Shown piece by piece: positions 10,201 through 58,846 of a stretch of 58,846 bases of DNA; position 1 is the first letter of the stretch; every line of letters begins with the position of its first letter. The stretch is from Phoronis australis (taxonomy: Eukaryota > Animalia > Phoronida): contig NMRA01000158.1 of the NCBI GenBank assembly GCA_002633005.1, forward strand, positions 1 to 58,846, given 5' to 3'. Below the pieces are notes generated by a model that was not told the DNA's origin, ran no database searches, and saw only the letters and a program-made list of their open reading frames with translations. The translations under genes and the position numbers were made by a program.

Positions 10201-12444
10201 GGGTTATAAGATGTGCACAAGTTGAGACAGGGGTGTGCCATGAAATACGTCGAGTTTCTCCCTCTGCTGTTACCTAGAAGAGTAGTCCGGCGGTACTCTC
10301 GACTACCGGGTCGCCTGGTCTTTGAGTCTGCTTAAGACTATTCTACACCTTGAGGTCGGTAAAGTTAATGTGACGTAGATACTGTCATTATCATTGGATG
10401 AGAGTCAAAGAAAACTAAAAAAGTTACTTTTATATTGGCATTATATACTTTTGATGAGAAGCTCGGTCTCATGTGCTGCCACAAATCCCGCAGTCGTAAA
10501 ACGATATTAGCTTTCTGCCTTTTATAGTTTTTGTATTCCCAGGGTTTTAGGAGGTGTAATTTATCTTGAATAAGATGTGGCACAAGCAATAAGCTGCAGC
10601 CAAATGACCTGTTCGTCTGTGTCACTTCGCCTTGGTGACAGAGAGTGGCAAAATGGTGTTCTTGTTTTGACAAATCCTGAAAAGTGCAGCAAATTTCACT
10701 ATGAGGTTTTGTAAAAATACGGCACATTCCCCTTGGACGTGGTCCCCACCAACTGTGAATTTTCGGGTGTATTTACACAATAAACAAACATGCATGTGTT
10801 TACTTAGTCAACAGTTTAGAATGAGTGACACGACATTCACTAGGTGGTGCTAATAAGTGGGCGACTGACATCTCGGATCTGAACTGATTGAGAGCAGGAA
10901 ACAGGTCACCAAAATGGACCAGGGAAGTTCGTGTGATAAAGGACTCACTTGATTTATGTGAATGCAAGCATTGCTATGGAACAGCTAGTGAATTTCTAGT
11001 TCCCCGTTAAAAGGCTTGAGTTCAATAACTCTCGCCGCGATCAAAATGTCAAACTCACTCGTGTGCAGCCGTGCTCTCATTGGAAATACACTGCGATATC
11101 TCGCGGAATCTCGAGAGATCTTAGCAAGATCCTTTCGTTGATTTCACGTGCACGTGCCGCGTTATTAGAAACGCCAATGAAGATTTATTTTCAGTTGTTA
11201 GATGTGTATGAACTGCTTAGAAATTGAAGGTTCGTATTTTGCATTGGAAATTCTTAGGTTTTCTTTAATAGGACTCACAGGTTATGTGCAAGACACTGAC
11301 AACCGAAGACAAAACAAAGAAAGCGAGAATATTTAATTGAGGAGGCATTGTGGCCTAGTGTGATTGATGCTCGCCTTCTTCACTCGAGGTCGTGGGTTCG
11401 AGTCCACCTGGGCCACACTGCTAGACTCTTGAGTCAGGTTTCTAGCTCCTCAACTGGGTTCAACTGCAAGTACATTAATAGAGCACGAAAATAGTTCCAG
11501 GTGATTAGTGCAACGGGCCCACATGTGCAGCCTGCGCACATCGGGTACAAAGTGTACCAGACGGCCTGCAATTATTTTTAACAATATTTAATTACTGCGA
11601 AAACATGTTAGCAAGAGATGTTGAAACTCCTATCATGACTCAGTAAACTTTTGTTTTAGATAGAAGACGAGCATCAGAAGCAGACATTAATACAGCAGGA
11701 AACGAGAACGTTGAAGGTGCTTTTCATTGCATTTTCTTATAATTCTGTCATAACACGCATTTCTCTTCTGTTAGAAACCTTCTTACCCTCGGGTTCGCCC
11801 AAACCTCACTCGGGGTCCCAACGACACCAACAATAACAGAATCCGAATGTGATACTGTATGTTAATGTACCATTCCTGTCCTTATTTTAATGTTTTATTT
11901 AGTGGATTAGTTAACATAAGAATTGCGAATGGGATGCTATTGGCTTCAATTGAATTGTGAACCATGTATCAAAAAGGGCATGTGTCTGATGCCTGAGTTG
12001 CATCGGTTGTGCGCGGACCACGTAAATAAATCGTGTCCATAGCACGAAAAGCCGAACCCTGTTACATGTATGTGTATATAGTCGTCATCAGGCTCTTCTT
12101 GAGAGATTTTACAGAAGTCCGTTGCCATGTAAGCACATTCTTGTGATGTTGACGCCACTTCTGCTCTTGCGTGTTTGCCCATCACACGTAACCCTCTGCC
12201 CTGCAAAGTGACCATGTATTCGATAGAGTTCTAATTAATGTATCGCCACACTACTTAGAGAGACATTGCTCGCAGACCAACCGAACACTTCTCATTGCAG
12301 AACAGGAACGCAGCTCGATTGACAAGATTAAAGAAACAGATAACTGTATACAGAACAAGGAACCGTCAGCTGGACGAACAGATAGCGAGTATAAGCAACG
12401 AAGCACGAATGTGGGAAAGAAAACTTGCCATTGACATCTCCTAG
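7275..12444 (+). CDS. CCDC122: Coiled-coil domain-containing protein 122-like, ~275 aa, 9 exons
   Basis: Exons 7275-7347, 7663-7814 (alternative in-frame acceptor at 7735), 8111-8126, 8333-8446, 8764-8845, 9232-9305, 10027-10142, 11660-11716, 12301-12444 give an 828-nt open frame ending in TAG. The C-terminus IEDEHQKQTLIQQETRTLKNRNAARLTRLKKQITVYRTRNRQLDEQIASISNEARMWERKL resembles the CCDC122 C-terminus as I recall it (LEEEK..[26 protein letters not shown]...RQW). Heptad composition throughout. The 5' exon and start codon are less certain. Confidence 0.8.
7418..7519. mobile_element. Small MITE in CCDC122 intron 1
   Basis: CATGGGCGGCGCA...TGCGCCGCCCATG TIRs; flanks TACAT/TACGT (5 bp, one mismatch). 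N join at 7473 with local duplication of the G/C runs. Confidence 0.7.
8980..9105. repeat. Degenerate (CAT/CGT)n microsatellite-like tract
   Basis: CATCATCATTATCAT...CATCATCAACATCG in a CCDC122 intron. Explains the Ile/Val-rich spurious ORF 8953-9144. Confidence 0.6.
11340..11570 (+). mobile_element. tRNA-derived SINE
   Basis: A-box-like TGGCCTAGTGTG and B-box GGTTCGAGTCC, followed by a non-tRNA body (CTAGACTCTTGAGTCAGGTTTCTAGCTCCTCA). A diverged copy lies on the minus strand at ~52430-52580. Confidence 0.8.
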
Positions 12445-13777
12445 TAGCACATGTAGGCTATACTTGTTGTTGTAACTGAGTTCAAGTTATTAAGTATTTG
12501 TGGCATGGCTTACGAGCTTGTGTCATATGGTATTGATCAACTATTACTCACAACTTGAGATTGGTACTGTGCTCAAGGAGTAAGCGCGAGATAATGAACA
12601 ATTCTAATGCAGAATACATTTTCCCAAAACTTGCTGAATTGTCACATTTTCTGTTTTCCTGGACCCGTAGAGTTATTCTTGTTTACAGGCTGAGAGAAAG
12701 TAGCGCGCATACATGTACTTATTGTAGAACAACAGACAGGAAATGCAGAACACTACTGGAACTATTTAATGTACCATGTCGCTTTGTGCAAATAAATTGT
12801 ACTGAAAAAAAAAAACATTGAATGGCATTAAACCCGCAGCTTCGTCAAAACGTTTAACTAAATCCCTTATCAAGTCAGGGGTGTTCTAGGCCTGTGTTTT
12901 ATTACAACCTGTTCCAAGGGAAGCAATTCTGAACAAAGTCATTTTCACACCTGATCAGCAGCTTTTAAACGTTGACTTCACCGGACCAGTACAGCATTTT
13001 ATCTCTTTCACGTACACGCGGTCATCGTCTTTCTTCCAATTACTTTGAACACGTGCAGCCCTAGCTACACTGTCCCTCTTTCATACGGAAATAAAAAAGT
13101 CANCTTGCCATTGACATCTCCTAGTAGCACATGTAGGCTATACTTGTTGTTGTAACTGAGTTCAAGTTATTAAGTATTTGTGGCATGGCTTACGAGCTTG
13201 TGTCATATGGTATTGATCAACTATTACAACTTGAGATTGGTACTGTGCTCAAGGAGTAAGCGCGAGATAATGAACAATTCTAATGCAGAATACATTTTCC
13301 CAAAACTTGCTGAAGTGTCACATTTTCTGTTTTCCTGGACCCGTAGAGTTATTCTTGTTTACAGGCTGAGAGAAAGTAGCGCGCATACATGTTCTTATTG
13401 TAGAACAACAGACAGGAAATGCAGAACACTACTGGAACTATTTAATGTACCATGTCACTTTGTGCAAATAAATTGTACTGAAAAAAAAACATTGAATGGC
13501 ATTAAACCCGCAGCTTCGCCAAAAACGTTTAACTAAATCCCTTATCAAGTCAGGGTTGCTCTAGGTCTGTGTTTTATTACAACCTGTTCCAAGGGAAGCA
13601 ATTCTGAACAAAGCCATTTTCACACCTGATCAGCAGCTTTTACATGTTGACTTCACCGGACCAGTGCTGCATTTTATCTCTTTCACGTACACGCGGTCAT
13701 CGTCTTTCTTCCAATTACTTTGAACACGTGCAGCCCTAGCTACACTGTCCCTCTTTCATACGGAAAGAAAAAAGTCA
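12424..13777. repeat. Apparent tandem duplication (12424-13102 / 13104-13777) across a single N; probable allelic contig overlap
   Basis: Two ~675-bp copies of the CCDC122 stop/3'UTR region differ by a few SNPs and indels and abut exactly at N13103. Confidence 0.85.
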
Positions 13778-16910: not shown

Positions 16911-19031
16911 CTTAGATTTCGGCGGTCAACCATCAACTATGATAAAGCACTTGAAATAAACAAAATTTTCACATCTTAGTTCACAAAAATGGGCCAAAAT
17001 AAAAAAATGAACTAAAAACTTAACATTACATACTTCATGGCCAACGTTTTTCCTATTTAAGACTGTCAAAGTGTTCCGTAAAGTTGCATGCTTACGTGAT
17101 CGCATAGATTAATCTGAAGCTTGCCCGCTGCTTTTATCAAGCCTCTGTTCCATGTCTAAACGTTCTTGACGGTACCTCGCACCCGATTTTTCGTCACCTG
17201 CATCCGTATAGGCGATAGCAATGTTATGCAAGCTCGCTACTATTTTGGGATGGTCCTTGCCACCGAATAGCCTCTTTCTCATATTTAACGCCTCCTGATG
17301 TAACTCGATTGCCTTGTCGTATTGCTGGAATCGCCTGTGAATTATTGCTAAGTAGCTTAGACAGGACGCAAAGTCCTCATCATCTCTACTGCCAATTAGT
17401 CTCCTTTTCATATTCAAAAACTCCTGGTTGTGTAAGAATGCTTCATCGAACCTTCCCGTTTCCATGCACAGCTCCGCCACTTTAAACAAAGACATTACTA
17501 TGTCAGAGTCATTGTTACGCAATCTCTTCTTCATAAACAATGAATTTTTATGGTTTTCCAGAGCCTCGTCTAATCGTTCTTTATCGATCAGTATTTCTCC
17601 AATATTAAAATATGTTAAAGCGATGTACGGGTGATCAGCGCCCTTCATACACCGTTCCATCATAGCCAGAGCCTCCTTGAATGCCAGGAGCGCTGTATCA
17701 TATTCCTCCTTTTCTTTATGCACACACCCGATATTTATCAACACCGCCACTATGCCAGGGTGATCATCGCTGCTATTGCAGGACGACAAAATCCTCTTGA
17801 ACATATCTAAGGACTCCTTGAGATATGTCACTGCTTTATTCAAGTCACCAATTTTTCTGTACAGGTTTCCAATGTTTGATAAAACTTCTGCTGTGCCTTT
17901 GTGATCCTGACCGTTCAGCAGTCTCCTATCCATGTCTAATGAGTGTCTGTGGTACATGAGAGCGGTCTTTNCTTGGATTTCGGCGGTCAACCATCAACTA
18001 TGACAAAGCACTTGAAATAAACACAATTTTCACATCTTAGTTCACAAAAATGGGCCAAAATAAAGAAATGAACTAAAAACTTAACATTACATACTTCGTG
18101 GTCAACGTTTTTCCTATTTAAGACTGTCAAAGTGTTCCGTAAAGTTGCATGCTTACGTGATCACATAGATTAATCTGAAGCTTGCCCGCTGCTTTTATCA
18201 AGCCTCTGTTCCATGTCTAAACGTTCTTGACGGTACCTCGCACTCGATTTTTCGTCACCTGCATCCGCATAGGCGATAGCAATGTTATGCAAGCTCGCTA
18301 CTATTTTGGGATGGTCCTTGCCACCGAATAGCCTCTTTCTCATATTCAACGCCTCCAGATGTAACTCGATTGCCTTGTCGTATTGCTGGAATCGCCTGTG
18401 AATTATTGCTAAGTAGCTTAGACAGGACGCAAAGTCCTCATCATCTCTACTGCCAATTAGTTTCCTTTTCATATTCAAAAACTCCTGGTTGTATAAGAAC
18501 GCTTCATCGAACCTTCCCGTTTCCATGCACAGCTCCGCCATTTTAAACAAAGACATTACGATGTCAGAGTCATTGTTACGCAATCTCTTCTTCATAAACA
18601 ATGAATTTTTATGGTTTTCCAGAGCCTCGTCTAATCGTTCCTTATCGATCAGTATTTCTCCAATATTAAAATATGTTAAAGCGATGTACGGGTGATCAGC
18701 GCCCTTCATACACCGTTCCATCATAGCCAGAGCCTCCTTGAATGCCAGGAGCGCTGTATCATATTCCTCCTTTTCTTTATGCACACACCCGATATTTATC
18801 AACACCGCCACTATGCCAGGGTGATCATCGCTGCTATTGCAGGACGACAAAATCCTCTTGAACATATCTAACGACTCCTTGAGATATGTCACTGCTTTAT
18901 TCAAGTCATCAATTTTTCTGTACAGGTTTCCAATGTTTGATAAAACTTCTGCTGTGCCTTTGTGATCCTGACCGTTCAGCAGTCTCCTATCCATGTCTAA
19001 TGAGTGTCTGTGGTACATGAGAGCGGTCTTT
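16911..19031. repeat. Apparent tandem duplication (16911-17970 / 17972-19031) across a single N; probable allelic contig overlap
   Basis: Two 1060-bp copies abut at N17971. Within the coding part I count 12 substitutions in ~860 bp. Confidence 0.85.
17109..17970 (-). other. Second (probably allelic) copy of the 3' ~286 codons of the NTase-TPR gene
   Basis: ORF 17109-17990 matches the C-terminus of ORF 18170-19921 except for 7 residues. It begins at the N join and has no real start of its own. Confidence 0.8.
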
Positions 19032-21331
19032 AAATCGCCTAATCGGCTGTAGATAGCGGCGGCGTTGTTCATGCTCGCTGATACGACCGGATGATCCCCA
19101 TTTCCGTGCAAGATTTGCGCCATGTCCAGCGCTCTCAGGTGCCACTCTAAAGATTTTTCATTCTGACCCATGTGGGCAAGTGCTTCACCTAATCCAACAA
19201 GACTGTCTAATACATCCGGGTGATTTGCCCCGTCATGAGCCCATTCTACAATATTTAATGCCTCCATGTGGCATCTTAGTGCCTCACCTGCTGTTCCCAT
19301 ATCGCAGTATACTGCTCCAATGTAATTGAGACTCACTGCCAAGTCACGGTGTCTTTCGCTACCATGCATTCGTAATCTTTGATGGTAGGCTTTCGTAAAG
19401 AACTCAAGAGCTGTATCCAGCTTGCCAAGGGTAAGGTAGTTACTTGCCACTTGGTCTAAATTCTGTGCAACTAAACTGTCTGAAGGTTCAACATCTGTTC
19501 TTTCAAGAATGTCTTTCAGTGTTAAAGAATACGACAATGCTTGATGCAGTTGACCCTCGCTAGAATATGTGGTGGCTATATTGAACATACATTGGCGAGT
19601 CTTCTCGTCTGTTTCAATGTAAAAGATTTCACGATCGTCAAAAAGTAACTTCTTGACAAGTGTTTCGTCATCAACATTTCTGAAACGCTTTTCAATGTGT
19701 GAGACAAAATGTTCCCGCGCCTTCTTGTACAAGCAGAGGTTAATTTCGATAAGGCCAGTCACAAACTCGTTGCTGTCGTAAAAGGATCCTGGAATTTTAT
19801 TTGAAGTGAAAACAGCGTATGCACCTTTGGCCTGTAAGGATATAATTAGTGGTAGCATGGTGTAATAATACCTGAACACCAAACTACGGTTCTCAAGATA
19901 GACAACTGGTCTCGAGTCCACTTATGTTGACTTTGAGCTGGGAGACAACAGACTCATGGATTCTTCTTGGTAATGTTTCCTTGAATAAATGGATAGTCTG
20001 AGGAGTGATACAATAGACACCACACAGTCCAAATTGTGAACCGCCTGATCTGTGAGTATACCTGCTTTTCCCATTTCTTCTAAAACAGCCCATGTACTGT
20101 TACTATTTAAAGAGTACAAGGTTTTGAACAAACAGATAATTAAGCTAGGAAGTCTGAACAACCCTTGTTTGATGTCGTGAACCGTGTTGGCATACTTGTG
20201 AAAATTTGTCTTAGGAAAGAAATCTTGAATGAGCTCCAAGATTTCATCGAACGCTTTCGCCTTGACATTTTCATTGCTTTTGACTTCTCTCCTGGCTGAA
20301 ATGAAATCGTCTACAAGCTTATCTGCGCCACTGCTTCCACCAATCTTTACAACAGAGGTCATGATACGATCAATGTTATAACCTTCTTTTAGCGCGGTGT
20401 TATATTCACACAGCTGAGCCATACGTTGTGGAGTCCGGATCAGTTCACGACCTTCCTTCGTTGGCCTGTCCGGTCGACCTAGAGGTGTGTTACACGCGTA
20501 TGGTGCTGCGCTGTCGAACTGGAACCCACGTGGTGCGACGCTGTCTGTGAACCAGTTTGCACCTGGTTTGTCATAATCGTTCAGCGATTTGATGGCTAGC
20601 GATTTCAGCAGAGTTTCTTGGATATTTAATACGAACAAATGGACCAGCCTTGCTAAATTTCTGAAATAATCTTTGCCATTTGACTCATCTTCTACAAGAA
20701 TAGCCCATTCGATATCGGAAAAAGGTGTCGTATCACCTCTTGCTAATGACCCTAGTCCTATTGCCGCATATTCTTGAGGAGGTGCGCCAAGGATCTGTTC
20801 ACTTTCGGTGATTAAATGACGAACTAAATCAACTATTTCGGCAGTTAAGTCAACAAAAAGGTGCTTAATCTTAGCAGTAAATTCTTTTTCTGTCAAAATA
20901 CGTTCAGAATCACTACTTTCTAGATTATATCTGGACTGCATTTCTTTCAATAAGTCACTTGCTCTCTCGCTAAACTCATTTCTCAATTTACTCAATTTTT
21001 GCTTTATATCACTCCGGAAATCTTCGGGCAGTTTTGTTGGTGATATTGATAAAACCTTACAAAATGCCATTTCCGCTTGCCGTAATTGATTTCCAAGCGC
21101 TTCCATTAAAGCAGGGTTATTTGTTCTCAACATCGCTGCGTTTGCGAGTGCCGAGGATTTCACAAAGTTGTCCACGTCTTTCGTCAGCAGACCACGTTCA
21201 CAATAGACCTCTCCCATCTCTTTTAGTATCCTAGCATCCCTCTCCAGTTCATCACGTGATCCGTTTTTTAAGATGTCAGCCAGTTTTTCTTCTTTTGCAT
21301 CTAGTGTTGCAAGACGTTCATCTGAAACCAT
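18170..21331 (-). CDS. Nucleotidyltransferase (GlnD/GlnE/DUF294-like, pol-beta fold) - TPR array protein, ~1053 codons, interrupted by one in-frame TAA (19924-19922)
   Basis: ORFs 19922-21331 and 18170-19921 abut in the same frame (TCA ACA TAA GTG GAC). NTase motif AAIGLGSLARGDTTPFSDIEWAILVE fits hG[GS]x9-13Dh[DE]h (~20695-20767). Helical partner domain DIKQGLFRLP...TWAVLEEMGKAGIL...AVHNL...LLRL follows. About 11 KLC/NPHP3-type 42-43-aa TPRs (HRDLAVSLNYIG, HPDVLDSLVGLG, HPVVSASMNNAA, HPYIALTYFNIG, HPKIVASLHNIA). No coding introns. Confidence 0.9.
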
Positions 21332-28449: not shown

Positions 28450-29550
28450 ACATATTAACTACAACCAAATAGCTGTGTACCAATCTCTTTAATCTCAGGT
28501 ATTCTTTCAATAAAGTTCGTATTCGTCATACTATCCAATTGAGTGTCAAAATCCACCCCCAAAAATCTAAACGATTTTTTGTCCAAGACAGACTATTATA
28601 TCGGAATCACTTCATTACTACCATTTTTAATCCAAACCATATGGCTTTTGTTTTATCCACATTCACTTGGAGAATGTATTACATTCAATGTGTTAGTCAA
28701 TGACAAATTTGACCCATCCAACGTAAGTGATGTGTCGTCCGCATATTGCGAAATCAAATATTCTTTATTTCCTGCAACTACACCAGCAATATTTTTATTA
28801 TTCTTGATTAAATACGCCAAAATCTTCGCGCACAATATGAAAATGATCGATGACAAAGGATCACCTTGTCTGCATCCACGCGAAATATTGAACCAGGAAG
28901 ATGGGTGACCATTTACGACAACACAGGACATAATATTACTGTAAAAGATTTTCACTCACCTTCTGATCGACCAACCAGAATTAAAGAAAGATAAAAAAGT
29001 TTTTTGAATAAAAGTCCACGACAATGAATGAAATGATTTTTCAAAATCAATCAGTAAAAGCAATCCTGGTTTGTTAGCTGCCTGGGCATAAAACATTAAA
29101 TCATAGAACTCGCGGATATATTCATCCATATTTCTTCCAGAAACAAAAACCTGTCTGGTGTTTACTGATTAGTTTTCCCAAAACAGATTTTAACCGTTCA
29201 GCCACAGCCGAAGAAGGCAATTTGTATGTCCCATTGAGTAAGGATATGGGCCCCCAGTTTTTCAAAAATGTTTACTTCTATCTGCTCCCTTAGGGATGCA
29301 GGTAATCACTCCCTCTTTCTCTGTTGATGATAATTGGCCAACAGCAAAACCAGTATGAAGTAAGCGAACAACGAAATGTCCAATGTGAGTCCAAAAAAAT
29401 AAAAAAATTCCACTGAAAAACTGTCCCGAGCCTGGGATGTTGTTTTTCATTTTTTTCAAGCATTGACCTTCATATGTAAGAGGACCTTCTAATTTTTGTT
29501 TTTCTGTTTGGAGACACAAACCTTCAAGAGTTTCTAAAGCAGTATTACGA
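28450..29550 (-). mobile_element. L1/Tx1-clade LINE reverse transcriptase region (decayed)
   Basis: RGCRQGDPLS.IIFILCA.IL...I...KNIAG.....EYLISQYADDT and GVITCIPKG motifs. Same orientation as 25440-26340, so probably one element split by a ~2-kb insertion. Confidence 0.88.
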
Positions 29551-29771: not shown

Positions 29772-32100
29772 GCCTTTATTTGTACACATGGCCATCGGCC
29801 CAAAGTACAACAAACAAGCAAACAAGATCATTGGAGTACTATGCACACTAGTCAGTAATGCTCAAGCTGTTCCGTTTTTTAGATGCGTAGCATGCATATT
29901 TCACCACTGAGATATCGGGATTACATAATAGTCTATGAAATTTAAACAAAGAGGGACTTGTCCAGAGGCTCTCACTCTGATTTCGGAAAACGCGTCGCAA
30001 ACTAACAAAAAGTGATATTCATCCTCGACACAATTCCTCCAGCATCAATGTACACACTCTGTCTTGATATATCACATTTACATGACGACCAGTTTCTACT
30101 GCCAGTCTGGGACTTGCACATCGAAAACGTGTAAAACTTTGCACGAACACTCTTGGAAGATTTTCAATTTCTAAATAGTTTTCATGTTTAAATACAACCT
30201 TAAAATTTTTGTAATAGTTTAACTTAGAATTGGAATCAACATCGGACTGCCATCTTTGCAAAGCACAGTCCTTAACCCGTTGTAAGAAAATATTTACAAA
30301 CGACTCTTGACACAAGACTCCTTGGTTTACCCAAACATCATGGAAACCATACATTGACAATAAATTGCGAACTGAGCTTGCCCAATTATACATACGTCTA
30401 CCATTTTCATCTAGTCTCTACAACATGTTGTAAGCGGCCCTTGGATAACGTTCCTGTGGCATATTCAAAATTTTAAACCAGTATTTAATACAGCTAACAA
30501 AGTGTCTCGTAAACATACTATTATGGTATCTGCAACATTCACCGAATACTGCAGCGTTAGAGCAAGAACTGCCAAGTCCCAGGAACCATTTACAATTTTT
30601 TTAATTCTTTAAAACCCCAAATCTCTGCACCATAACACAATGTTGGGTACACCAGTTTATCAAATAACTGAAAGGCAAGTGATGGAGGCATATCGCGACA
30701 TCTGTAGTTTCAAAACACGTGACGCAGCATTATTTGCTTGACAAGAAAGAGTTTTTGTCGCTTTCGACCATGACAATTTTGTGTGATAAAAATACTAAGA
30801 TACTTATAATGAGATACAGTATCAACTTGCTGTTTGTTAAAAAATATTTCTCATAGTGTCTTAAGGGACCTACATTTCTAAATACAGTTATTTTGGTTTT
30901 CTTTAAATTCACTGCTATACCCCATGAACCACAATAATCATTGAGACAATTCAACATTCGTTGCAAGTTAAACGCTGTTAGAGAGCACAAAACCATGTCA
31001 TCTGCATATAATAATGAATTAATGTTTGCAGTATGCTCATCTAAGTAGATGCTATTTATATCACAACGTTAATTGAGTTTTCTAAAAACTCATTGAGATA
31101 CAAAAAATAGTAGAAGGCTTATCATACAGCCTTGCCGAGTTCCAGTAGTGCCATTAAAAGGGTCTGTTAAGCCATCACGTGTTTTAACACATGATCTCAA
31201 CTTGCTTTACATTGATCACAGAATTGATAACATATTGCCATGAAAATTAATTTGCATAAGTCTATGAAAAAGTAAGATATGTGGCACTCGATCAAAAGCT
31301 TTTGAAAAGTCAATAAATGCACAATAGAACCTGCCACCCCTTTTGCTTATGTGTTTCTGACATATCGCATACAAAGAAAATATATGATCAACAGTCGCGT
31401 AACCCTTGCGGAACCCTGCTTGGGCTTCAAACAGTTGACCGATACTTTCGGCACAGTTATGCAATCGGTTATTCAGTATTCTGGTAAAGACCTTCCCAAA
31501 AGCCGACAGAAGCGAAATACCTCTATAATTATTATCATCGTCCACGTTACCTTGTTTAAACAACGAAATTAACATCGCATCACACCAAGCCTGGGGATAG
31601 AAACCTGACTCGAGAATTACATTGAATAATTTATGCAGAATCGACGAAATGAATGTTTTGGTACATTTTAACATTTCAAAAGTAACTCAATCAATACCAG
31701 TGACCTTGGCATATGGAAGCTGATTGATATTCTGGATAATTTCATAACACGAAATGTCTGTATTTAAATCATGTTGTATGTTGTGGGTACACTTTTCACA
31801 GCAGTTGTCATGACTAGTTTGCCTATTGACGATAGTATTCATGAGTAAATCGCTAACAGGCACTTCTTTGTTTAACAGACTCTTAAAATAAGCATGCCAT
31901 TTTTGTGGTGTAATAGACGTGGCTGTGCACCTCGAAGGTTGCGTACTAAATTTGATCATTTTCCAAAATTCTTTGGGTTGTTCCTATTCTTGGAAATACT
32001 TTCTAGTAACTGAGCTTCATAATTTTTCTCTTTTTGTCTATACAAGTCACGGAATTGTTTTCTTTTTAATTTATAATTATCCATGTCAATGAACTGTGTT
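29772..32100 (-). mobile_element. RTE-X-like LINE, 5'-truncated and decayed
   Basis: NNYRGISLLSAFGKVFTRILNNRL, QAGFRKGY.TVDHIF, FIDFSKAFDRV and LYADD motifs; C-terminal RFRCASPRLAVETGRH; 3' end GGGCCGATGGCC...AATAAA at ~29775-29802. Confidence 0.88.
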
Positions 32101-33180: not shown

Positions 33181-35757
33181 ATGACATCTCTGTTTACATA
33201 TATTTATTTTCTATTGAGTGGGATCCTTAAAGGTAAGTGTAGCTTAAATACGTTCATTTGTCATAAGGAAATCTGTAACAGTGCTTCAAATCAAAATCCG
33301 ACGCGCTATTGCGGTATAACCACTAACAGACTGTTGCGTTGACGGCGACTGCAACAGAACCAGGGCAGTGGCGGATCTAGGATACCATAAGGGGGGGGCA
33401 ACATGTTGCCTCGGGGAATTGGAAAAGCGCGATTGTAGATTGTATAAGCACAGGCCAGGGGCGGATCCAGAATTTTGAGTTAGGTGGCCAGGGCAGCATA
33501 TTAGCCAGGATTTTGTCCGTCAGACATTCGCACCTCCGAACTGCCCAATGGAATCTGGGAGAATTTTAAGGGGGCCATGGCCCCCTTGGCGCCCCTCTAA
33601 ATCCGCCACTGCAGGCCGCTTGAAAGTTGCGGGGCCGGATATGTGAACCTTCTGTTCGGAAAATGCATCGTTGGACTAAAAAAACGGAACTCGATTCCGC
33701 AGCGATCTGAGCCCCCCCATCCGCTACGTTTCTGGCAATCAGTAATTCCTCTCGCTTCACTCTGTTGCTGTTTCAGTTTGCTTCCGGCAGCCAGGGGGGC
33801 GGGCTCCCCGACCCCCATAAATCCGCTTATGCAGGGGCCCATTTCATGAGACTTTCAAGTCTTAGATCTAAATCGGACTAATAGAAGACCAAAATTCCTC
33901 AACCCTGTTTCATGAAATTTCCCAACATGAGTTATATATTGTGTTTGCTTTAAACGGGCAAGTATTGACTTACGCTTGGCACACGTAGGTTTCTAGGGAG
34001 GCTATAGCCAGCCACCTTGTTGTATGAATACCATCGTCAAAATACAGCTGGTTACCACTGTGTGTTTTTATTCCATAGACCCCGAAATTGCACACAGCCA
34101 CAGTTGTTTTGCTCGTCGACTCGCCGTGAAACCTGTATCAGCATGTAGAGCTGAAGACGACCGGACGGGATGCATGCAAAATCTGGGAATCAAACGACCC
34201 TCACCCTGCCTGTTACAGCCGTTTAAATGAAAAACAATCTAAAAACGTCACTTTCTTGCGTAATCATTTCTAACAGTAGCAAAATTTCTAATGAAGTTCG
34301 GTTTTTCGGTATCAAAATTCTAAAAACTTATAATGAAGTGAAACCAGTTCCAATACTTTGTTGTGACGTGTACGCAACCTCGTGAAAGAACAACATTTGA
34401 TTGAAGAATCGGCGAAAAAAGAAACTGGCCAATAGGTGACGCAATATTTCATGGAGCCGAAAGCCGACGCAGAAGATTGCTCCACAACACTTTAGCAGCA
34501 GAATAACGGTTGAACGCCATTTTTTCCAAAAACAGAAAATACTTTTGTTTACTCAAACAGTTGTGCAGTTTTTAATGACACTAATTTTGTGTCATATTTT
34601 CTCTGATCGTTTTACCCACATCAGCGCAAAGCTGTATATTGAGTATACAACATTGTTCCAAGGATACACACAGTGGTATATAAGCTTCATACAGCCAGTC
34701 GTTTACAGAGCTGAGTATTGGCTGGCAGCTGGCTGGTTGGCTAGAGTCCATACTGCCCACAATCACACCAGTGTAAGTTGTTGATACGGACTGGTTGCAC
34801 GGGCAAATTTTCGTTTGACGATGACGACGTCTGGGTATCACTTTGTGTTGTTTTGGCTAAAACAGGTATGCTTTGTGACACGACATTCCACACTAAAATT
34901 TGAAGAACGCCACTTGATTGCACGCTAACTGAGTAGGACACTGACTTTACTCCCCCCACCACCAAATACGCCACTAGAAGCTAGAAGCAGCGCTCCAAGT
35001 GCATGATTTTTGACTTACGTTAGAGAATATCACTTTACTTTTGAATTATCAGTGAAATTAATTTACAACTCATAGAAAACTATTCAAAATTTGTTCAGAA
35101 TAAAATAGAGTTCCCTTTTAAGTTCTTTGGCTACAGACTGCGTTCACGATTTCCAAGGGATTACACCTGACTGATCGTTTAATTTCAGTGGAAGTAGACA
35201 GCTTTCAACAAAAAATTAAGTATGCAACACAATAATCGTTAGCTTTTACAAAATAGACTGTGTGGATTGATATGTCAAATGCTTTGCTGTCTTGCATTTG
35301 GCTCACAATAGCTACAGTAGGAACCAATGCGTCTGCATGGCATACATTGTTCAATTGTCTATAAATTCCTCCTCTTTTGCTTTTTCAGATGTTGCAATTT
35401 CTGCCCTTCGTGTGACTGCAACTGATGAAGTCGTCGGTGTCAGCGGTGGAAATGCTACATTTAGGATTAGTATTGTTGTGGAAAGTGGTGAACACCTATA
35501 CTTTATCCAACTGGTTAAAATCTCAACAGATAGTGAAATATTTAACACTTATTACATTGGTCCACAGGGTCCAAGTTCGTTTGACGGAGCTTTTCACGTT
35601 AACTATTCATCTCGTGCTTCAACTGACTATTCTGCTGGAAAAACCGACTTCACAATCACTTTGTCACAGCTTACTTCTGATGATGAAGGACAGTACAAAG
35701 TGAATGTTCGTGGCAATGTGGGCATGAAATCTTCATATACCCGGCTTGTTGTAGACT
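33181..35757 (+). CDS. Signal peptide + V-type immunoglobulin domain protein (first two coding exons)
   Basis: Exon 33181-33232 MTSLFTYIYFLLSGILK (donor AAG|GTAAGT, phase 1) joins the phase-1/1 exon 35389-35757 (TTTTTCAG acceptor, CT|GTAAGT donor): DVAISA^LRVTATDEVVGVSGGNATFRI...DFTITLSQLTSDDEGQYKVNV...YTRLVVD. This is a V-set strand pattern. Confidence 0.8.
33366..33831. mobile_element. MITE family B with a family A MITE nested inside (33456-33611)
   Basis: Outer TSD CAGGG (33361-33365, 33832-33836). Inner element reversed, with TSD CAGGC (33451-33455, 33612-33616). Confidence 0.9.
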
Positions 35758-36724
35758 GTAAGTAGTGTTTTGGTGACATGGCTATGGTAATTTGTCGTTT
35801 ATTTTGCGTCAAAAATAATTGCCAAGATTGTCATTTTTCAATTTTGCAAAGGCTGATGAACTTGCTTTAAATATTAGAAATAGAACCAAATATTATTTTA
35901 TGACATCTGTACAGAACAAAAAGTTAATAACTGACTATGATTGGTTGATGAATTTGAGAAATTGATCTGTTTGTCTGCCATATTATGTGCTAAATAAATG
36001 AAGACTTAACATATTTGCTACAGAATGGAACCTGTAGTTAACTTTAAAAGCGATACCTTGCGTGTTTATTGTGGAAAAAAAACATTTTAGAGACCCACCG
36101 CATAGAAATTTGTCTACTACTTTTTGAATCTTCCGCCAGGCACAGAGCAGCTCCGTATGTACCCACAGTCCTTTCATTAACTGAGTGGCTATAATATTGG
36201 GTAGACTAGGAGTGCATGGAGCATAGAAAGATGCCGTTGAAAACGTTGAAGACAAAATTGTAGCTTTGATCCTGAGACAGTTCTTTGCGTCTGCGTGCAC
36301 ACGGTCGTTGAGAACGAATGCACCAAGTCCGAGTCTCCGCCCGGCAGGTTTATTTTTCAAGAACATAGCAAGTTGTGAAAATAGGTATATCCTCACAAAA
36401 CTTCATTGATTTCATCGTTTATTTGACGTTTCTCTGCTTCCATCACGAATCCATTTCGCGTTTTCACCACCGTCTCGATTTTTATTGTCTATTTTGTTTT
36501 TGGTTTCTAGATATCAGTCTCTATGGCGCGTACTTCATCTGTTGCGTATCGCAATGAACTATTGACCTACTTACTGCTGACTCCGCCTTTGACCTAGGTT
36601 GACTCGATTTACTGAAGTCTGACCATAGACTATAGTACATAATCTATGGTCTGGCTTGCAAATTGACCTATCGCAAGCTCCGCCCCTATGCGAAAAGTCA
36701 CGTGATACCAGACATTCGAACAAG

Positions 36725-50774: not shown

Positions 50775-51460
50775 ACGTTTCGTCAGGATCATATTTACAA
50801 CAATTTAGGACAACAAGTGCCAACATACAGCTCAGGTAACATCCATAGAGTGAAGTGAGAGATACATAGAATATGGTCAGTAGCTGGTCATCACCATAGC
50901 TGCAGGGTTACATAGCTCTGCATGTTATTCAGAGAATCAGTGGCATGCTGGTTCTGAATGGCCAATGACTCTTTAATGTACAGTAACTCCTTATTGAGTT
51001 CTCTGCAGATAATACTAACAGAGTTGGCTTGGTGACTGTAGCTAATACAATGCCTATGTATGTTACTTATCTCTGAGGTGTGATGTTCTTTCAATCTGTC
51101 ACAGAGGCGTCTCTGTGCGAGTCCTATATAGAATTCCTTACAGTTGTCACATTCAACCTTATACACAACATTGCTCTTGTTCAATAAAGGGATGGGTGAC
51201 TTCAGTTTACACAGCATATTGGAAAGTTTCCGAAGGGGTTTGAAAACAACTATCAGTTCAACTGCTGGGTCTATGCAATGAATAAAGCGAGATAATTGGC
51301 GTTTCAATTTTATACTACTTGGCCCGGTGTAACCAAGAGAAAAGAAAACTTTCTTTTTCTCGGGTCCAATAACAGCTGTCTTATCTGCCTCACTCATTTT
51401 TGAAAGAAAGTTCCTTTTACAGCTATTCAGAAAATCCAGAGGGTAACCATTGTCATGAGA
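50775..51460 (-). mobile_element. Penelope-like element 3' fragment (GIY-YIG endonuclease)
   Basis: NGYP upstream; ORF 50891-51397 has SNVVYKVECDNCKEFYIGLAQRRLCDRLKEH...LYIKESLAI...LN. CGAAACGTT hammerhead-like relic at ~50774-50782. Confidence 0.88.
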
Positions 51461-53150: not shown

Positions 53151-53756
53151 TGGCTACGTTGCGTCCTCCTCTCGAAGACTTCATCAGGCCACTGAGTTGT
53201 CACGTGACTTGTCATGTAATCTGTCGTACAGTTTCCGCGGAATTCTCTTCAGCGCCCTATCCCATGTCCTAGGTAGGTGAAACCGCAGCCCCCCCCCCTG
53301 TCTATTGAGGCTAGTATTCTCAATTCTCTAGTAGATAGCTTCTTTGACCCCTCTCCGAAACCAATTCTCTTCTCTATCCAGGATCTTCACATCTTCCATG
53401 GCGAAAGAGTGGTCTGTGGAAGCCATGTGACTAAAAACTGCAGAATCATAGTAGTCCCCATAACTGGACCTCCGATGCTGGTTGAAACAACTTTTCAGGG
53501 CTTGTTTGGTTTCCCCAATGTATGCTGCTCCACACCCCGGTTCCGAGCATGAAGTTGTTAAATGTGAAAGACACACCAGAAGGAGTCAATTGTTAAATGT
53601 GAAAGACAAAACCAGCAAAGAGAAAACATCAAATGTGGTGTATGGCATTTCATGCTCGGAACCGTGGAGTGGAGCAGCATACATTGGGGAAACCAAACAA
53701 GCCCTGAAAAGTCGTTTCAAGCAGCATCGGAGGTCCAGTTATGGGGACTGCTATGA
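53151..53756. mobile_element. Penelope-like fragment with inverted GIY-YIG duplication and decayed hammerhead
   Basis: Minus-strand YIGETKQAL...DREENWFRRGVKEAIY and plus-strand SNVVYGISC...YIGETKQ. 53446-53553 is inverted at 53648-53756. Hammerhead-like core at 53151-53191. Confidence 0.85.
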
Positions 53757-56116
53757 GTGCAATGCACGCATCCTGAATATTTCTCGTTAGGTTATTATGA
53801 AATCTGACATTAGGCTTTAATGTGAGAGTCCTCGGTCACTGACTTCTACATTACATTAACGCGTGTGTAGTACATTGCATACATGTATGAATGAAAGCGA
53901 TGCTTGCGTTCTCAAAAAACAACGTTGGCGTTCCATACGTTACAACGGTGGCGTGTGGCAGTTGTGGATAGATTTTCCAGTTAAACAGTACCACACGAGG
54001 TTTTGTGCAGATTTGTAACAGCAGTGATGATACAACAATTTATTCAGTTACGCCACTTCATAAAGTAATGCTATCCCTTAGTCGAATTGGAGGTGACTTG
54101 AGGGCTTCGAAAGAACTGTCATTTCTTTATTTCGGCTTGGTCAAAAACAATGACCCATAACTTCTTTCAGAGCTCAGAAATCACTTATAAATAGAGTAAG
54201 GAACAGGATACGACCGATTTCATAGTGGTCAGTGCTTTCAATGAAGAAGTCCTTGATAGTAAGCAAGGGTTTCAGGCTCGCGAAGACTCTTATCAAATTC
54301 TTTAATGGCACTGAAACAGGCCTGGGCTCGTGGATATGAGATTTTTGAGCCTCCATCATCTGTAATATCACGGAGCCAATCAATGAACCCATTGTTTATT
54401 TCATACAGAGCCAGGTACCTCTAGAACAGCTTGCTTATCTGAAATATACCACATAACACACCAGGAAAGCAGGTTTGTATTTGTCAGTTGATTAGTCATG
54501 TGTCATGTAAACAAAGGTTTTGGCAAAATGGAAACATGAATTTGTAAGCAATGAAACTACAGATGTAAGTTTTCAGTCACGAAACCTTGAAAATTACGCA
54601 AAACCAAGACTTTCTCTTCAACTTTGGCTTGAATTTAACAGACAAGATGGGGTACAATGCCACGTGCAGTAGTACTTAAACAAAAAGAAGGTCACTGATA
54701 TCACTATAAAACATTGAAAGATAACCCAAAGAGTCATGCGGTATCACCCGGGGTACCACTACAACACAAAACATGACAGTTGGGTCGTATAGACCTAATG
54801 CGCTGTAAGACTAGACCTGAAAGGAAAACAGGGACCAGACTATTCCCGGGCATCCAGGGCCACTGGCGGGTGCGTGTACATAATGTTCGGTGTAACTGAA
54901 GAGTTTATATTGACTAATTTTACCGAGAAATGGCTGGAACCATACTTCAAGGTCTGGCTAATGATGCCACTACGAAGAAAAATAACAAAATAAAATGCAA
55001 TGAAATTAGGCTTCATGTGATAACAAAGACAATCGAGAGAAGCTCAGTCGATTGCACAGCCTGAAATGTGCAGTGCAAAGTATCGCGAAACCTAGGGGTC
55101 GCAAACTCTGACACTAAAGGTCACGGGTCACGCGCAGAAGTTGGCATTCCAGTTTCATCAGTTCTATGGTAAAATTTATATTATTTAGACTGTCTAGATA
55201 CATTATAAACAGTTGGCATAATGTAAAGCAATTTCCGTAGGATTTAAATTATACGGAAACAATTCTGCTGCTATGATAAAGGAACGGTATTATTGAAAAC
55301 GCCCATGAGAATGAAGGCTACCACTCTACTCCTACTTATAGGTAGGCCTTTGAGGAGTTTCTTGTTTCTGGGATACCGTAGTATATGACGAGAACCCAGG
55401 AAGTGAAACCTGACTGTTACCACGGCTCACAGCAAGCACTTTTAATAATTAGTCAAATAGTACACAACTTCATTTTCCTGACATGTTTCGATGCGCACTC
55501 CTCATTCTCAAAATTTCAAGAATCAGCATGATGTAAAGGTCAAGGTAACAGTAAGCGGTCATGCTGGTGGGAGATATGATAGATGAATAACACAAGGGTA
55601 AACAAGCCTCCACCAAGGTGGTGTATTTGCACATTCAGGGATGGTTTTATCCAATGAATATACAAAGCCTCCTTAAGTTTAAGTCTATAGTCTGTCACTG
55701 TTCAAGATACTAAAACTGGACACTGAGTATTCTGACATGCATTCTGGATGACCATGCAGATGTTTGTAGACTTAAACTTAAAGATAGTCTCCAGCGACCA
55801 AAACACCCTTTGACACCAGAAATACAAATGATGTTTTTGTTTCTTGCGTACGAGAGAAAGTAATTAATGGCGACGTAAATTACACCGCCCATAATTCGTA
55901 GCGCCCTCGAGCGCCCCAGAGAAATTCTCAATCAGCGTAAATTGGTACTTATGGCATCATCGTGCAAACGAAACGTCCCCGAAGCCTCACCTGCGTAACA
56001 GCTGAGAGTCATTTCTTGGACGTAGGCTAGTTATCGGTCTCTGGGCTAAAATATCGCGTTGGGTACGGGTGCAGCAATCTAAGCGTCCTTGGCATNGCGC
56101 AACATAACGGTCCAGT

Positions 56117-57300
56117 CTGCAGTAGGACAGTGCTGGCTGGGTCAGTCTGGGTCAACTAGGCATAACCAAAATCAAGTGAACTGAAAGCCAGCCAGCTGCG
56201 TCTTTTCATTGGTGACCGAAGGAAACAACGGCATTCGAAAATCTCGAATAATTCAAAAGTAGACGTTGTAGCGCAAAATGGAAAATATCTTCTGAAAGCC
56301 CGTCCACAACTCTACGTACTTTGATAGAGCATACAATCAACTACAATAAAGAACAATAGATGGCGCAACATTACAGACGAGGCATGCTTTGCAGTAGGAC
56401 AGTGCTGGCTGGGTCAGTCTGGGTCAACTAGGCATAACCAAAACAAAGTGAGCTGAAAGCCAGCCAGCTGCGTTTGACCGAAGGAACAACGGTATCCGAA
56501 AATCTCAAATAATTCAAAAAGTAGACGTCGTAGCGCAAAATGGAAAATATCTCCTGAAAGCCCGTTCAAAACCTTATCTAAAGTGTTAGTTTGGCAAAAA
56601 TCCAAAAAATTTTCGAGAAAATTGAAAATTTGCCAATTTTTTTCAAATTCAAAGTCAAATAACTCGAAAACGGTAAGTCTGAGAAATACGCTCTCGCAGA
56701 CTTTTTGAAAGGCCATACTTTAAGGAATCCGCATGCAAAAATTCACGTCATTTGCTCTTCCCATAAAAAATGCGACACCAGAGCGATTGAAACCGTGTGA
56801 ACATGCCCCACAGCCGCCATCTTGAAAGTGATTTCCGGTTCAATATTTTTTTATAAAAGCTTATTAAACTCAACAAACACGTGACCAGTTTGAAAGTGAT
56901 TGGTTTACAAATGCGCCCTCTACAGGAGAAAACGTTTTTAGCCATATTTCGGGGTGCGCATGCGCCACGTCCAATATTTCCGCCATCTTGAACCGGAAGT
57001 CAACGATTTTCTGCACACTTGTAGCACATTTGTTCTAGTATATTCGTATTGATTTTCAGCCATGTAGGTCGAAAAATGCGGCCTTTACGAGCATTTGACT
57101 GTGAAATCGGATACAAAATGGCCGCCATGTCCGCCATTTTGTATCCAATCATGACGAAAAACAATAGGCTTCTAGGACTTCTAGATCTACACGTCGTGTA
57201 CAAATTTCGTGAAAATCAGACGAAAATTGCGACCTGTAGAGTGCGAACAAACAAAATGAAAGCGCTCTGAGGAGCGAAACTTGGCGAAATTAACCAAAAA
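56117..57300. mobile_element. Helentron/HINE-like non-autonomous element with a duplicated ~190-bp end (56117-56305 / 56389-56570)
   Basis: Typical motifs AAATAACTCGAAAACGG, GCAAAAATTCA, AAAATGGCCGCCATG and AAATTTCGTGAAAATC, followed by a (GAC/GAT)n tract. Confidence 0.55.
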
Positions 57301-57314
57301 ACACACGTTCGAGA

Positions 57315-57541
57315 GGACGAGAAAAGACGACGACAGAGATGATGACGATGATGACAGCTATGACGACGATGGTGGCGATAATGAACAACCCTAGTAGAAA
57401 TCACTAAGAAATAGGCTACAGTGTTGAGCGACACTTGGCGAAATTAATTGAAGAAAAGACAACGACGGAGATGATGACGAAGATGACGAATATGATGATG
57501 GTGGTGGCCATGATGAAGAACATCATAACATTCATATGACG
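57315..57541. repeat. (GAT/GAC)n low-complexity tract
   Basis: GACGACGACAGAGATGATGACGATGATGAC... in two blocks, ending at N57542. Confidence 0.8.
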
Positions 57542-58846
57542 NCATTGTTTTGGCGCTTCCTGGTTGACCGTAGCTTGTTCACCACTTGGCGGCGCTAGTA
57601 GTAGCGGTAACAGCGAACCCATAAGTGAACTCTCCTATACTACTACACTCCTTGGTATTATTGAAAACGCCCATGAGAATGAAGGCTACCAGGCTACTCC
57701 TAGTTATAGGTAGGCCTTTGAGGAGTTCCTTGTTTCTGGATGCCGTAGTATATGACGAGAACCCAGGGAGTGAAACCTGACTGTTACCACGGCGCACAGC
57801 AAGCACTTTTAATAATTAGCCAAATAGTACACAACTTCATTTTCCCGACATGTTTTGATGTGCACTCCTCATTCTCAAAAGTTCAAGAATCAGCATGATG
57901 TAAAGGTCAAGGTAACTAGTATGCGGTCATGCTGGTGGGAGACATGATAGATGAATAACACAAGGGTAAACAAGCCTCTACCAAGGTGGTGTATTTGCAC
58001 ATTCAGGGATGGTTTTATCCAATGAATATACAAAGCCTCCTTAAGTTTAAGTCTATAGTCTGTCACTGTTCAAGATACTAAAACTGGACACTGAGTATTC
58101 TGACATGCATTCTGGATGGCCATGCAGATGTTTGTAGACTTAAACTTAAAGAAAGTCTCCAGCGACCAAAACACCCTTTGACACTAGAAATACAAATATT
58201 GTTTTTGTTTCTTGCGTACGAGAGAAAGTAATTAATGGCGACGTAAATTACGCCGCCCATAATTCGTAACGCCTTCGAGCGCCCCAGAGAAACTCTCAAT
58301 CAGCGTAAATTGGTCATCGTGCAAACGAAACTTCCCCTAAGCCTCACTGCGTAACAGCTGAGAGTCATTTCTCGGACGTAGGCTTGTTATCGGTCTCTGG
58401 GCTAAAATATCGCGTTGGGTACGGGTGCAGTAATCTAAGCGGCCTTGGCATACATTTGTGCAACGTCCCTGCCGTTCCCGTCATCTGCCGTGTATGGAAT
58501 AGATTTGTATTCACGACAAGGACTGGGGACAAAATTCCCGATCAGCAAAATCTGTTCTACCAGTGGCGGATCTAATATACCTTATGTTGATGCACTATTT
58601 TATTTTGCAGTGCGTAAGGTTACGTCATACTACGTGTGTCAATAGCGGATTTGCAGCGCAGACGAACTACGCATTGCGCATGTGCGAGTTACATCCTTCG
58701 CGAAGGCTCATGGGATAGCTTGTGGTCAGGCATGTCTTGAGCAGGCTGGATAGTGTGTGCATTTGGAGTGATTTGCAAACTAAAAACCATGTTTCATTTT
58801 TTGCTTTATAATACCAAGCAAGTCCTCTCTCTCGTTTGTAAACACA

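Follow-up and report, generated by a model that had tools for sequence, protein, structure and literature searches.

Does a single in-frame TAA in a gene of Phoronis australis mark a dead allele, or a gene that still works through, around or on either side of its stop? The stop lies on the minus strand of a 58,846-nucleotide stretch of DNA (GenBank assembly GCA_002633005.1, contig NMRA01000158.1, positions 1 to 58,846; hereafter the window), in a gene that joins a predicted enzyme to a TPR array. We give a probability of roughly two in three (0.68) to the reading that it is a real nonsense mutation, probably homozygous, and most likely a null (young pseudogene) allele in an enzyme-TPR family. 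The features of the gene are these:

19925-21331, minus strand: upstream open frame (P0001), 469 codons, assigned by its DUF294 match (29.7 bits, cut-off 21) and predicted structure; N-terminal TPR-like hairpins (about residues 1-102), a DUF294 nucleotidyltransferase core and most of a C-terminal helical subdomain.
20708-20758, minus strand: intact polymerase-beta-type catalytic motif G192-L-G-S...S205-D206-I-E208, from the alignment of homologues.
19889-19975, minus strand: inter-helix loop, residues 453-481, which holds the stop; pLDDT below 50 at 462-473, variable among relatives.
19922-19924, minus strand: in-frame TAA, codon 470, next base G, 15 residues past the invariant Q455.
19826-19888, minus strand: last conserved helix of the enzyme module (482-502, RYYY..PL motif), encoded past the stop, from alignment and predicted structure.
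19856-19858, minus strand: first in-frame ATG past the stop, M492, inside helix 482-502.
18170-19921, minus strand: downstream open frame (P0002), 583 codons, ending in TAA; the last enzyme helix, then a kinesin-light-chain-like TPR array (TPR_12, 226.7 bits, 7 stretches).
16911-17970, minus strand: second-haplotype copy of the gene's last 286 codons and 3' flank, frame open, from an assembly overlap.

The preliminary description had taken the two open frames for one gene. We agree: homologues align in register across the stop, and both halves match one fused family, far beyond chance. The codons that it quoted, TCA ACA TAA GTG GAC, are correct for the minus strand, as are its 469 open codons before the stop (from the ATG at 21331) and 583 after it (to the TAA at 18170-18172), and the frame has no further stop or frameshift. 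A reassigned genetic code was considered and rejected, this being the single TAA within 1053 codons of a gene that itself terminates in TAA. The AATAAA at 19801 is a possible end signal for a short mRNA, though similar words are found throughout the gene and RNA reads extend past 19801. Two copies of the gene's 3' end, at 16911-17970 and 17972-19031, stand on either side of a single N at 17971 and are 98.2% alike, with 19 SNPs in 1060 bases, 12 of them in the coding part; we read this as the assembly overlap of two haplotypes, with no second gene.

The window as a whole is a diploid assembly joined at eight single Ns, and near-identical blocks overlap beside three of the joins. These blocks (12424-13777, 97.1%; 16911-19031, 98.2%; 55286-58451, 94.6%) we read as haplotype overlaps, and they will look like tandem duplications. 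Elsewhere in the window an Ig V-set exon-like frame at 35271-35762 on the plus strand (25.5 bits against a cut-off of 26) is probably part of a multi-exon gene, and there are broken LINE reverse transcriptase and GIY-YIG remnants, the latter presumably Penelope-like, at 28656-28955, 30022-31983, 50894-51460 and 53464-53787.

The DUF294 match places the upstream frame among the DUF294 / polymerase-beta-superfamily nucleotidyltransferases. G194, S195, D206 and E208 of the GS...D-x-D/E catalytic motif are invariant in an alignment of 45 rows, and the second acidic place is E in 229 of 230 motif matches among homologues. A read-through model (residues 1-610, X at the stop, mean pLDDT 79.7) has a nucleotidyltransferase core followed by a C-terminal helical (HEPN-like) subdomain. 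It matches the DrrA/SidM adenylyltransferase domain (6yx5; Z 25.0, rmsd 4.0, 322 aligned) and the GlnE AT and AR domains (3k7d and 1v4a; Z 22.5, rmsd 3.6, 306 aligned, and Z 22.2, rmsd 4.1, 317 aligned), with scores far above the next rows in the fold search. The C-terminal domains of DUF294_C, GlnE and DrrA have been classed with HEPN (PMC3710099). Likeness to DrrA/SidM and GlnE lies in the fold and the GS..D-x-acid motif, at 11-12% identity; the GEF and PII-binding parts of DrrA/GlnE are absent from the Phoronis protein. With the halves scanned apart, neither DUF294_C nor GlnD_UR_UTase matched in Pfam at E 0.1, SidM_N scored 15.2 bits, below its cut-off of 27, and a PDB sequence search gave one chance match only; PF10335 is present in two homologues. 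Pfam match and model together make the gene a DUF294 nucleotidyltransferase of GlnE/DrrA-like fold with TPRs behind it. The intact protein would most likely be a TPR-gated protein AMPylase of the DrrA/GlnE type, as predicted from fold and motif. L443 and S447 (codons 443-447, 19991-20005, minus strand) stand where most relatives have E and R/K, in the ELRLRTY helix; the 443 place is E in 155 of the 169 matches listed, and a similar change occurs in an Owenia relative.

A representative protein search returned 1570 proteins at E 0.001. There were 61 longer homologues (58 from amphioxus and 3 from other sources) with 24-35% identity, and the named relatives include Owenia, Clavelina, Ciona and a Parachlamydiaceae bacterium. 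The enzyme-TPR fusion occurs in almost every relative, whether from amphioxus, an annelid, tunicates or intracellular bacteria. The DUF294-TPR proteins of amphioxus, Owenia, Clavelina and Ciona have the same part order and the motifs GLGS..TP.SD.E, RL..Y.....Q and RYYY..PL in common, and show 28-38% identity across the upstream frame, fused to TPRs, under the labels 'Protein-PII uridylyltransferase N-terminal domain-containing', 'TTC28' and 'KLC1'. Unlike the Phoronis gene these animal relatives are open across the loop, and the amphioxus forms have extra N-terminal repeats. A GTDB scan gave 44 loci (L066-L109), mostly of intracellular bacteria; these closest non-animal relatives occur in Parachlamydiaceae, Holosporaceae, Rickettsiales, Amoebophilaceae and Cytophagales, often in several copies per genome. 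The domain layout has already been described for the Neochlamydia NEX2 F-box/OTU-DUF294-TPR family (PMC4209131); NEX2 and like bacterial proteins share with the Phoronis gene a mid-protein DUF294 and C-terminal TPRs, and are expanded within genomes. They differ in being bacterial and in often having extra N-terminal domains, and the 44 GTDB loci contain neither a stop in the loop nor a two-gene form cut at it. Among the searched proteins no orthologue above about 49% core identity was found, the placement of the gene in a tree of 147 enzyme segments was without support, and 16 pattern matches in viral contigs included no relative. A literature search that took in few subscription journals returned nothing published on the animal family or its stops.

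The stop had been described as lying in the linker between the enzyme and TPR modules, and the models do not bear this out. Residue 470 falls in the low-confidence loop stretch 462-473, ahead of helix 482-502. The structural match to DrrA and GlnE extends to model residues 505-512, and TPR-like matches begin at about 489-519. The RYYY..PL motif (residues 487-495) is past the stop, and its R487, Y488 and P494 are found in 85%, 92% and 90% of aligned homologues. The read-through model aligns up to DrrA 347 and to GlnE 946 and 437; a model of the 469 residues (mean pLDDT 83.8) aligns only to DrrA 321 and to GlnE 927 and 400, leaving no counterparts of DrrA 322-347 and GlnE 928-946 / 401-437. The truncated product is, on these models, one helix short of the enzyme module. 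Because the stop precedes that last conserved helix, the 469-residue product would not be a complete enzyme, and the suggestion of a complete NTase free of TPR control is unsupported; DrrA fragments without part-C (218-340) 'or portions thereof' are reported to have no AMPylation activity (PMC7815794).

The reality of the stop was judged from contigs of four DNA runs (X1-X4), three of which carry the TAA; all four are of one sample, possibly the source of the window itself. The X1 contig at 18731-20723 keeps it, the sole other letter relative to the window being at 19118. Within 19350-20150 the single contig of X3 and the contigs of X4 keep it as well, with differences only at 19588, 19666 and 20067, so that in these two runs the TAA stands on the other haplotype's alleles near the stop. 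The X2 contig has 11 other letters in 2.7 kb, 10 of them located. Heterozygous sites flip between runs or give twin contigs (as 20067 does in X4); the stop does neither, and no sense allele appears at 19922-19924 in the contigs of X1, X3 and X4, which come from one animal. The TAA is real. Since it is kept alongside the other haplotype's nearby SNPs, it is not a base-call error, as the preliminary description had allowed, and in the sequenced animal it is probably homozygous; contigs drop variants, and that grade reckons with a one in eight chance of missing a second allele in three runs. The haplotypes differ by 0.4-1.8%, with no second lesion on either where seen. Paralogous contigs from the same sample overlap the enzyme core.

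Low-level transcription runs across the stop. Over 801 bases run X6 gave 10 reads and run X5 two, from 18-19% of each run, all oriented as expected for minus-strand RNA in the usual stranded library. The X6 reads cover both sides of the stop, and the depth across 19917-19943 is exactly 1, a single unspliced read that spans it. By hand estimate from that same 18-19%, the level is ~1 fragment per kb per million.

A disabling lesion in the DNA is what a duplicated pseudogene or null allele has, and of the origins proposed earlier a nonsense allele remains the best reading; the allele looks homozygous rather than heterozygous, and 'very recent' was not demonstrated. On this reading, almost every ribosome would stop at UAA-G. 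The resulting 469 residues, which lack the closing helix of the C-terminal helical subdomain as well as all C-terminal TPRs, would be unstable or inactive, and the TPR half would not be translated to any extent. Paralogues in the same genome, known here as the core-matching contigs, would make the loss cheap and let the allele drift to homozygosity. An earlier suggestion, that the absence of downstream introns could let the mRNA escape EJC-dependent NMD, is no guarantee because EJC-independent NMD exists; EJC marking 'cannot be the sole mechanism' (PMC1756896). Since relatives frequently pair intact alleles with nonsense alleles of separate origin, the stop is best read as an ordinary null in a family with rapid turnover. 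Nonsense alleles in general are common, at about 36 per wild fly genotype (PMC5888714). Counted against a null are the apparent homozygosity on differing haplotypes, the want of a second lesion, a lean toward synonymous SNPs, and a clustering of stops in the loop.

That clustering emerged from the relatives. Examination of 217 homologues gave 205 family units, in 193 proteins, with the helix before the loop; 199 of these extend at least 45 residues beyond that helix, and the six that end within 45 residues are four amphioxus gene models, one partial record and P0174. The last is a distant relative whose 90% cluster (P0174, P0227-P0232) contains two intact proteins of 886 residues that differ at one site, Q or K; two further forms end immediately ahead of this site and three start 2-8 residues after it, their contigs agreeing in length. 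We infer an in-frame stop at Q+9, so that one codon of the loop that holds the window stop apparently has three alleles; the cluster is seen as proteins only, so a frameshift is possible, and the query's length favoured finding it. A lesion survey of 109 loci yielded 104 units of at least 300 aligned positions, partly redundant. Eight had exactly one stop, and dropping L053, where the break is at an intron acceptor, left seven lone stops, at positions 117, 324, 360, 455/456, 462, 479 and 571. Three, from three lineages other than that of the Phoronis gene, are inside loop 453-481: L040 (3329, Q+1, TAA), L016 (1612, Q+7, TAG) and L019 (4404, Q+20, TGA). Intact counterparts exist for L016 (L014/L018) and L019 (L023/L020). 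All four lone stops that were checked against intact near-identical relatives face sense codons there (L019 TGA/L023 TGG, L028 TAG/L034 TTG, L016 TAG/L014 CAG, L004 TAG/L003 TTA). The frames of L053, L054 and L058 break at one place near query position 234 and resume behind an acceptor-like TTTTAG, which probably marks an intron of a single lineage, the rest of the family being mostly intronless.

The loop offers 5.0% of stop-creating changes and holds 3 of the 7 lone stops, a nominal P of 0.004; its limits were fixed from the Phoronis model before the loci were seen, and the lesion class was chosen afterwards. With all lesion types counted (a hand tally adding ~ten frameshifts and truncations) the figure is 3 of about 17 (P 0.05), or 4 of 17 (P 0.009) if a probable homopolymer slip at the loop edge in L027 is included. 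The plain null model leaves the clustering unexplained, and a leaky-allele model predicts it.

Such a model is the strongest rival, and we consider it unlikely: a dose-lowering 'pseudo-pseudogene' in which a few ribosomes would insert a residue at the stop and the full-length protein would function thanks to the tolerant loop, the allele being retained because it gives a low dose of an enzyme that could do harm, with both halves under selection. The independent loop stops among the seven, the split of the P0174 cluster at Q+9 and the Phoronis stop at Q+15 fit it, as do apparent homozygosity, transcription on both sides of the stop and the synonymous lean past it. There is precedent in Ir75a of Drosophila sechellia, which like the Phoronis gene has a single premature stop in an otherwise intact, transcribed frame (PMC7244557); readthrough was demonstrated there, whereas in the Phoronis gene the +4 base favours termination. 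Against leakiness, the loop stops comprise three stop codons at five positions, with a purine at +4 wherever the DNA was seen; distant relatives have sense codons at the Phoronis position. Stops that differ in codon and place argue that there is no conserved programmed signal. The preliminary description rightly noted that the context is not a favoured readthrough signal: UAA-G, in place of UGA-C or similar, is a strong terminator and among the tightest contexts, with readthrough at UAA contexts of 0.015-0.228% in mammalian cells and +4 G favouring termination (PMC5829715). Folding found no stimulatory RNA structure 3' of the stop (z -0.17 and -0.24). The weaker count over all lesion types, the post hoc choice of lesion class, the partly redundant loci and an mRNA that is already scarce also weigh against it.

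The 32 visible SNPs are an incomplete list, and some in the enzyme core are possibly from paralogues. Before the stop 10 of 17 are synonymous (neutral expectation about 23%; P 0.002), and after it 6 of 15, where 3.3 would be expected if neutral (about 22%; P 0.086); the two shares do not differ (Fisher P 0.48). Most of the visible SNPs may be older than the stop. With 15 downstream changes the chance of meeting no new stop is about one half, and the open TPR half therefore indicates no more than a young stop.

Extending leakiness to the whole family is more doubtful still. It would have nonsense mutations repeatedly and independently kept, as a heritable dimmer, in one permissive loop of a DrrA-like enzyme-TPR family, with basal readthrough giving a trace of functional sensor-enzyme and stop and sense alleles segregating together.

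We think it improbable that the stop makes a functional split, in which the 469-residue piece, or a TPR piece restarted at M492, would have its own job as free enzyme, decoy or partner in reassembly. The catalytic motif is intact and the truncated model still folds at the mean pLDDT given above, but the enzyme module loses its last helix to the cut. M492 has an A at -3 and L040 has a Met three codons past its stop, but a protein restarted at M492 would lack the first half of the last helix, RYYY included, and L016, L019 and the P0174 cluster have no Met ahead of that helix. Eukaryotic ribosomes re-initiate poorly past a frame of 469 codons. A two-gene form cut here would give the split a parallel, and the GTDB loci contain none (0/44).

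Two further readings, an intron and a sequence error, are together very improbable. A short intron could remove the stop, and among 118 frame-keeping GT/GC..AG pairs examined there are GT..AG pairs of 21, 33, 48 and 60 bases that span it, but their donors match at most 5 of 9 consensus places and their acceptors are pyrimidine-poor; two pairs with better donors would remove conserved helices. The Q-to-R loop is already 32 residues long against a mode of 34-38 in relatives, with 25 or fewer in only 2 of 120, and the one RNA read over 19917-19943 is gapless, splice joints being listed only at three or more reads. The view that no credible intron removes the stop therefore holds. A-to-I repair of the stop was also rejected: editing a UAA stop requires two edits, and no duplex stands out. 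Weakest of all is a base-call or assembly error, to which a fragmented assembly with haplotype overlaps 1 kb away lends some colour, but the TAA recurs in independent contigs of three runs.

As a null allele the finding carries little weight in itself; it documents turnover in an animal family, so far unstudied, whose members are likely AMPylating sensor-enzymes, and it serves as a warning that annotation will call two genes at the Phoronis locus. If the loop clustering holds in a larger survey, the family would provide convergent 'dimmer' nonsense alleles outside insects, and natural stop/sense allele pairs for such a case are already in public data.
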